From: an uncultured Mycoplasmataceae bacterium
GTDB lineage: Bacteria; Bacillota_I; Bacilli_A; Mycoplasmatales; Mycoplasmoidaceae
DNA: 61,087 nt
Assembly (NCBI GenBank): GCA_949288005.1
Contig: CASEIK010000036.1
Span: 1 to 61,087, forward strand
Reading direction: 5' to 3'
Notes under the pieces: model-generated
What the model was told of the DNA's origin: nothing
Database searches by the model: none
Seen by the model: only the letters and a program-made list of their open reading frames with translations
Shown here: piece by piece, positions 10,360 to 11,139 of the stretch
Layout of the letters: the number at the start of each line of letters is the position of its first letter
How positions within the stretch are numbered: position 1 is the first letter of the stretch
Program-made: the position numbers and the translations under genes

Positions 10360-11139
10360 ATGGACAAAAAAATAAATATATTGATGTATTGAATAGGTAA
10401 TGAAGAAATTAAACAAAAAATCATCAAAAACATTCAAGAAATTAAACAAAAGCATGGATATGATATCTATTTAGGGCCAACAAAAAATGAACATGATTAT
10501 TTGTTAAAAATGTCCAAATTTTATCATAATAATTTTAATAAGAAAAAGTTTGCATTTTGTTCTGATTACTATAGGATATATAAAAGCATTAATGAAGATT
10601 TTTTATATATGGATGCAACAATAATCTTAAATAAAAATATTGATCATTTTGCTATATATAAAGATATTTTAGTTAGAGAAAATTTTCATTTGATATGAAA
10701 TGGTCTTTTTAAGATTAGTAATAAAAAAATGTTAGTAAATATTAAACATTTTTATGATAAATACTATTGATTAGCCAATAAAATGACAGGTCCAGTAATA
10801 TTAAGTTTTTTTATATACAAATACTATGGTGCAAGAATGAATAAAACTAAATTACAAGAGAATAATGTTTTAATTCTTAATGCTAAAGATATCGATTACT
10901 ACTCAAATGATGCAATTGCCAAATATAATGGTTTTGGTTCATGGGGGGGGAATAAAGAAACTATTAATATGAATAATAGAGAATCTACTGGTGCTCACAA
11001 ATATTTTCATAACAATGCTCTTAAATTTAATAAACCTGAACCATTTTATTGAATAGGTATTAGATGAAGTATGAAAATACTAGCCTCTTTTATTTTGTTT
11101 ATATTAAAATTTAAATGCAATGAAAATCCTAATAATTAA
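10360..11139 (+). CDS. Glycosyltransferase, capsular-polysaccharide-synthesis / Gly_transf_sug-like (259 aa)
   Basis: ATG 10360; track ORFs 10501..10698 and 10783..11052 are in the same frame. N-terminal ILMYWIG and SDYYRIYKSINEDFLYMDATI resemble the SD..R...L...GG.Y.D.D/T motif of GT32/Caps_synth families. TAA at 11137-11139. Confidence 0.6.
10943..10950 (+). repeat. Homopolymeric G8 tract inside a glycosyltransferase CDS
   Basis: Read directly: tca-tgg-ggg-ggg-aat. It is the longest G/C run I saw in the window; other G or C runs are 5 nt or shorter. Confidence 0.9.

Follow-up and report, generated by a model that had tools for sequence, protein, structure and literature searches.

The glycosyltransferase gene gt259, which heads a surface-glycan or glycolipid locus, contains a run of eight G residues that is at odds with the composition of the DNA around it, that occurs as G7, G8 and G9 in public assemblies of the same species, and whose length decides whether the gene encodes its full protein. 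On balance we favour the reading that this tract is a slipped-strand contingency switch of gt259, as put forward in the original prediction. The features of the gene in the window (the whole stretch of 61,087 nucleotides that was analysed, to which all coordinates refer) are:

10360-11139, plus strand: gt259 glycosyltransferase gene, 259 aa, open under genetic code 4 only
10943-10950, plus strand: G8 homopolymer, the proposed slipped-strand switch, covering codons W195 TGG, G196 GGG and G197 GGG
10953-10955, plus strand: TAA stop reached with G9 or G6, for a simulated product of 198 or 197 aa
11054-11056, plus strand: TAG stop reached with G7 or G10, for a simulated product of 231 or 232 aa
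11044-11136, plus strand: C-terminal long helix (residues 229-253, hydrophobic MKILASFILFILKF) and tail, absent from all off-length variants

The tract (GGGGGGGG) lies within the codons tca-TGG-GGG-GGG-aat (S194 W195 G196 G197 N198), which matches the G8 in an SWGGN context at about residue 195 that had been predicted. The accompanying claim that there is no other G or C run above 5 nt was upheld over all 61,087 bases of the window, in which the next-longest G or C runs are G5 (n=5) and C5 (n=2), with none of 6 or 7. At the window GC content of 25.8 %, approximately 0.009 G or C runs of at least 8 nt are expected with an order 0 model and approximately 0.03 with a first-order Markov model, which puts the tract some 30-100-fold below a single occurrence by chance. 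The long ORFs of the window stay open solely when TGA is read as Trp, which indicates genetic code 4 and hence a Mollicutes-type organism. Codon usage was calculated from 44 window genes (19,198 codons), in which TGG makes up 7.7 % of the Trp codons, the remainder being TGA, and GGG has a share of 6.9 % of the Gly codons. With this usage the probability of TGG GGG GGG given W-G-G is approximately 3.6e-4, and GGGGGG is used at just one of the 62 Gly-Gly pairs in the window, this being the pair in the tract. The G8 tract is over-represented against both base composition and codon usage, and is located inside an ORF. Other switch-type repeats were searched for in the window, and no further G/C run, A/T run longer than 8 nt or microsatellite was found.

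When tract lengths from G6 to G10 were simulated, G8 alone gave the full protein of 259 aa. With G9 the frame reads ...SWGGE and then meets the TAA, in agreement with the immediate stop (gaa-taa) that had been predicted, while G7 results in 34 aberrant residues before the TAG, very close to the 35 or so codons and the stop near 11053 derived earlier by hand. The predicted loss of the C-terminal hydrophobic segment was likewise borne out for either change, as the simulated truncations remove the helix at residues 229-253.

The assignment of gt259 as a glycosyltransferase stood up as well, through its relatives and its predicted fold and with its own Pfam match absent (none at E≤1). A word-indexed search of 5.8 billion proteins retrieved only the 99 %-identity cluster of gt259 itself, and an exhaustive HMMER search found 63 relatives at E≤1e-3, including 22 at E≤1e-10, of which 32 were used for a family alignment. 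PF04488 (Gly_transf_sug, a GT32-type domain) matches 19 of these 32 relatives (best 2.7e-7), with two further matches to the TcdA_TcdB catalytic domain and one to Caps_synth. The family profile matches the toxin glycosyltransferases PaToxG and YeGT in the PDB at E ~3e-6, with the W-I-G strand and the S-D-x-x-R...Y-x-D block as the matching parts. The AlphaFold2 model computed from the family alignment has a pLDDT of 91.2 and a pTM of 0.88, with a dip in confidence at residues 190-210 (pLDDT 67-73) and a long C-terminal helix at 229-253. In a Foldseek comparison of this model with the PDB, ranks 1-15 are all GT-A transferases, with TM-scores of just 0.36-0.47, and include PBCV-1 A64R (7e-5), PaToxG, YeGT, Och1 and alpha-1,3-GalT. 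Judged by transitive homology and the modelled fold, gt259 is predicted to be a GT-A fold glycosyltransferase of a divergent GT32/toxin-type 'Gly_transf_sug' lineage.

Within the alignment, S194 and W195 are invariant and belong to a motif n-G-x-G-S-W, and G13, G39, P40, S68, D69, R72, Y83, D85 and P145 are near-invariant. Residues G196 and G197 are unconserved across the 32 relatives, where K, S, N, T, Q and others are found; as W195 is invariant and the two glycines vary freely, the need at the protein level spans the Trp alone. In retaining toxin-type GT-A enzymes, a Ser or Trp in a C-terminal loop contacts the UDP beta-phosphate or the glycosidic oxygen, and we presume that the invariant S194-W195 may correspond to this loop. 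The S68-D69-x-x-R72 block upstream of D85 is conserved in the family. A canonical DXD is not found, as the position of the second Asp is T, S, M or F when compared with the 'D-I-D' of PaToxG and YeGT; the window reads D85-A-T87. The family keeps S-D-x-x-R and Y-x-D, alters the second Asp of the DXD and adds an invariant G-S-W. From these alignments it would effectively be an undescribed, or at best poorly described, GT-A subfamily.

A protein-based scan of the GTDB genomes for gt259 gave no match; most of its back-translated patterns held Trp, which is TGA here, and the Trp-free patterns likewise gave none, so that the species is either missing from these genomes or masked among them. A degenerate-DNA scan of the GTDB genomes for A-F-C-S-D...R..K gave 24 matches, approximately 22 of them by chance; the two that represent true homologues come from Mollicutes MAGs (L011, Mycoplasmataceae MAG077; L016, uncultured Metamycoplasma sp.). 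These Mollicutes MAGs are the only named records in which the gt259 family was found. With regard to the tract site, both read TGA for the Trp and have no homopolymer. The closest homologues (41-47 % identity) read TCA TGG GGA AAA AAT or TCA TGG GGT AAA AAT at this position, and more distant relatives read TGA CAA or TGA AGT, again with no run. By these comparisons the G tract is lineage-specific.

Length variation of the tract was searched for in public assemblies by exact sequence look-up, using the ORF fragments that are predicted under translation table 11 for off-length alleles. The predicted G7 and G9 fragments were each found in an ENA contig, whereas the exact look-ups for G5, G6, G10 and G11 products found none. 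In JGI metagenomes, the 24 nt just before the tract had 0 matches. Tract lengths in all six members of the gt259 cluster, which are sequences of the same species, are:

L001 (ERZ16268049): G7
L002 (ERZ17292903): G9
L003 (ERZ17292902): G8
L004 (ERZ17292904): G8
L005 (ERZ16268149): G8
Window: G8

Comparing tract length between strains, the check that had been suggested with the original prediction, shows that the tract is not invariant at G8: among these consensus assemblies there are one G7, four G8 (window included) and one G9, and the flanks of 40 nt on either side of the tract are identical in 6/6 sequences. L003 and L005 were compared with the window over 13-16.6 kb and show 28-30 SNPs and, in both, the same single indel outside any homopolymer. 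This indel is a single nucleotide at window position 5641, in the 3' end of a SLAC1-family gene (4547-5650), and alters the C-terminus of the transporter, which has 367 aa in the window and 371 aa in L003 and L005. None of the 14 A/T runs of at least 8 nt differs among L003, L005 and the window, and no other homopolymer varies; since all 14 A/T runs are unchanged, the G7/G9 variation is not general homopolymer noise.

All four intact gt259 genes have G8. They are 98-100 % identical in each 200-nt bin across gt259, so that over long periods they cannot count as independent. We had considered L004 as a strain of 95 % identity that conserves G8, and rejected this, as every 200-nt bin of L004 up to 11545 shares 98-100 % identity with the window, after which the two sequences are unrelated; with near-identity up to that point, it gives no deep-time support for conservation of the tract. 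Identity falls to 48-72 % between L004:2600-3846 and window positions 11546-12800. The 3' half of the GT4 gene downstream of gt259 and the membrane protein gene that follows are a different allele in L004, and L002 is of the L004 type. Seen at this level of sequence comparison, the glycan locus is a mosaic with gt259 as its conserved head, and replacement of downstream alleles between strains is typical of surface-glycan loci.

Both off-length tracts are found in gene copies that are broken at the 5' end, at the following position:

10726-10727, plus strand: breakpoint of the L001/L002 lineage, upstream of which lies an unrelated segment with a hairpin of 13-bp stem

The match of L001 and L002 to the window ends between these two nucleotides, inside codon 123, and the first 122 codons of gt259, the catalytic Asp block included, are replaced in both. 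The foreign segment is identical in the two (L001:1-96, L002:1-84), has no counterpart in the window or at the other loci, and contains the hairpin GGGAGCACTTTTTATT...AATTAAAAAGTGCTCC, with a dG of -15.4 kcal/mol and z = -4.66. The two contigs come from different studies and carry the same foreign segment. L002, from a k=87 assembly, extends 84 nt past the breakpoint, as is seen when a de Bruijn contig enters a repeated element, and for this reason an insertion sequence or other rearrangement is likely at the breakpoint. L001 and L002 also have private SNPs in common (11056T and 11084T). Between the two contigs there is one SNP in 630 nt, against a difference of 2 nt in the tract; slippage in the tract is much faster than background mutation, and the tract is thus hypermutable. 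As the off-length tracts are both found in a single lineage that is already broken, they speak for mutability under relaxed selection and not for switching in a live gene.

The genes and signals surrounding gt259 are:

8329-10335, minus strand: divergent 668-aa membrane protein, N-terminal LPG_synthase_TM (flippase-like; PF03706, E 2.5e-12)
10341-10346, plus strand: TATAAT box, 13 nt before the gt259 ATG, recognised from sequence only
11120-12202, plus strand: GT4 glycosyltransferase (PF00534), with its ATG 20 nt within gt259
12220-14295, plus strand: 691-aa polytopic membrane protein of the glycan locus, without family match
14295-15221, 15326-16816 and 16816-17712, plus strand: three GT2 glycosyltransferases (PF00535, E 3e-35 to 3e-26)
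19365-20252, minus strand: GalU-type nucleotidyltransferase (PF00483, E 2e-31)

The C-terminal domain of the 668-aa protein is GT2-like by eye only. The GalU-type gene, which is found together with one further GT2 gene at 19.4-21.6 kb, is the likely UDP-sugar supply of the glycan locus. The glycan cluster has the lowest GC content of the window (0.216-0.232), and has no GC skew. The TATAAT box upstream of gt259 is likely to be the promoter of a short-leader or leaderless gt259 transcript, judging from its sequence and position. The start codons of gt259 and the divergent flippase-like gene are separated by 24 nt (10336-10359), and TATAAT boxes are present in both orientations around this gap (palindromic TATAATATTATA); this arrangement suggests that overlapping promoters may serve short-leader or leaderless transcripts in both directions. 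No promoter-like site was found on the plus strand between 10534 and 12360, in a scan which is uninformative in AT-rich DNA (9 sites vs 24 expected).

The 20-nt overlap between gt259 and the downstream GT4 gene that the original prediction described is present, with the GT4 ATG at 11120 and the gt259 stop codon at 11137-11139. Neither GT4 nor the next two genes have a Shine-Dalgarno sequence, and each overlaps or abuts the preceding gene, which makes it plausible that GT4 is translationally coupled to gt259.

Elsewhere in the window, the cumulative GC skew is lowest near 28 kb, adjoining dnaN, and the dnaN-pth intergenic region (27729-27873) contains AT-rich 29-nt tandem repeats at 27790-27857; there is no dnaA gene next to dnaN in the window. 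The replication origin is likely to be located in this dnaN-pth region, approximately 17 kb from the glycan cluster. A 357-aa ORF (18038-19111) contains a 21-nt tandem repeat at 18996-19052 on the minus strand (2.7 copies, 88 % matches), encoding DTKPTLE repeats near the N-terminus of a protein without family match, and from this repeat structure the product could be a size-variable surface protein.

In the mechanism that we propose, the G8 tract would be a hypermutable slipped-strand site at which any change of one nucleotide in either direction would turn gt259 off. G8, giving the full enzyme of 259 aa, would represent the ON state, G9 or G6 would lead to a stop two codons past the tract, and G7 or G10 would lead to 34 wrong residues and a stop at 11054. 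Off-length products, without the native last ~60 residues and the hydrophobic C-terminal helix, would be expected to be inactive or mislocalised. The early stop in gt259 may also lower the expression of GT4 and the downstream genes by polarity, because GT4, whose ATG is located 20 nt within gt259, lacks its own ribosome-binding site. Mollicutes are not known to have MutS/MutL mismatch repair, and slippage in the tract is therefore expected to stay uncorrected. Reversible, high-frequency switching within a clone, with a glycan phenotype, is what we infer from these elements.

Of the claim of a phase-variation switch, the parts that stood are that the tract slips and that the shifted frames truncate the protein; what weighs against it is that off-length tracts are seen only in the 5'-broken copies, with G8 in 4/4 intact genes. 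That same distribution is what would be expected if the tract were a mutational hot spot without switching function, the G7 and G9 tracts being the decay of a dead copy and the intact G8 being kept by purifying selection, and a related homologue that is broken by an A10 at nearly the same place may equally be a mere pseudogene. We regard this as the most serious of the alternatives, with perhaps one chance in four or a little more of being correct. It does not easily account for the use of three rare codons, in a genome of 26 % GC, where the protein needs no glycine, and mutation is AT-biased and should have interrupted an unselected run. The tract is located in the gene that heads a strain-variable glycan locus, and this position, like the precedent of the mycoplasma gsmA gene discussed below, fits a contingency locus.

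It is improbable that the G7 and G9 tracts are sequencing or assembly errors and that the true length is G8 throughout. Both are found on short contigs (725 and 1067 bp) that are probably of low coverage, and homopolymers are error-prone; against this, the contig names (k87_, scaffold_) point to de Bruijn assembly of short reads, the A/T runs of comparable length are constant among the assemblies over 16.6 kb, and the two deviations are opposite in direction and both occur in the lineage with relaxed frame selection. Lower still do we rate a reason at the level of protein or RNA, be it a flexible Gly-Gly loop following the catalytic Trp or a programmed slippage, transcriptional or ribosomal, with two products. 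The tract does start at the invariant Ser-Trp, in the region where the confidence of the model is lowest, but Gly-Gly is not conserved in the family and, if it were needed, would normally be encoded by GGT or GGA. Programmed slippage is further contradicted by the lack of a slippery heptamer and of downstream structure, and by shifted frames that lack a conserved product. The contingency switch remains the reading that we prefer.

The A10-containing homologue mentioned above (L008, Logan contig SRR27489467; 40 % identity), which belongs to another Mollicutes-like organism, has its run at 4453-4462, two codons past the G-S-W motif. The run breaks the frame and the C-terminal region of the family resumes in the +1 frame, while A9 or A12 would give a protein of 270/271 aa. 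An exact look-up for the in-frame (A9) version found none, and L008 is a single sequence; its A10 may stem from an error, mark a pseudogene or represent a parallel switch. A far-reaching and rather unlikely extension of the switch model is that the codons following G-S-W would be a recurrent, independently evolved site of contingency homopolymers, gating a strain-variable glycan operon via the GT4 start that lacks a Shine-Dalgarno sequence. If this were true, uncultured mycoplasma-like bacteria would have evolved stochastic switches repeatedly, in one and the same structural loop of their leading transferase.

If the gt259 switch is real, it would be a second example of poly-G control over surface-glycan variation in Mollicutes and mechanistically independent of the first, in an uncultured lineage and with another class of enzyme than a GT2 synthase, namely a small GT-A enzyme heading a multi-enzyme locus, and it would mark this locus as the variable surface-glycan determinant of the organism. 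It also illustrates that metagenome assemblies alone suffice to spot contingency tracts and to document their polymorphism. The mechanism itself is a textbook one, and the gain is in annotation and ecology, not in concept.

With regard to enzymes of known type, gt259 resembles the PF04488/GT32 and toxin-type transferases (Och1, PaToxG, YeGT, TcdA/B) in its predicted fold, its N-terminal W-I-G strand and the common A-x-x-S-D-x-x-R...Y-x-D block. It differs from them in falling below the Pfam reporting thresholds and in the change of the second Asp of the DXD to Ser/Thr; the invariant G-S-W and a basic/hydrophobic C-terminal helix are features of the gt259 family itself, which is, as far as seen, confined to uncultured Mollicutes-like genomes.

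Poly-G/C contingency loci are well known from Campylobacter jejuni (LOS, capsule and flagellar glycosylation), Neisseria (lgtA/C/D/G) and Haemophilus influenzae, where G/C homopolymers of approximately 8-13 nt inside glycosyltransferase ORFs of AT-rich genomes give stochastic ON/OFF expression through slipped-strand mispairing. The gt259 tract is similar in being a G/C homopolymer in a glycosyltransferase ORF that is conspicuous against the composition of the genome. These bacteria have tens of tracts per genome, with measured rates and phenotypes, whereas here there is one tract in 61 kb of an uncultured organism that uses genetic code 4.

A closer parallel is the gsmA gene of Mycoplasma (Mycoplasmopsis) agalactiae, the poly-G glucan synthase to which the original prediction refers and which does exist: its poly(G) tract is described as causing high-frequency ON/OFF switching of the capsule (PMC12103780). 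In two published accounts, the switching concerns a beta-(1->6)-glucan capsule and is credited to Gaurivaud et al. 2016 (PMC12103780, PMC11658790). As gsmA is presented there, both genes are from Mollicutes and have an intragenic poly-G tract in a surface-polysaccharide glycosyltransferase, both are truncated when a change in tract length shifts the frame, and truncated alleles are reported for gsmA in some strains, as is the case for gt259. The enzymes themselves are different, as GsmA is, by the same accounts, a GT2 synthase embedded in the membrane, which by itself both produces and exports a homopolymer, whereas gt259 is a small GT-A enzyme in a multi-enzyme locus. In Pfam gt259 does not match GT2, and its structural model contains one hydrophobic helix at most, at the C-terminus; the GT2 loop flanked by TM helices is missing, the sequences are unrelated, and gt259 is not a GsmA homologue. 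With the mechanism already known in mycoplasmas, the putative switch of gt259 is a credible but ordinary addition to this group of contingency loci.
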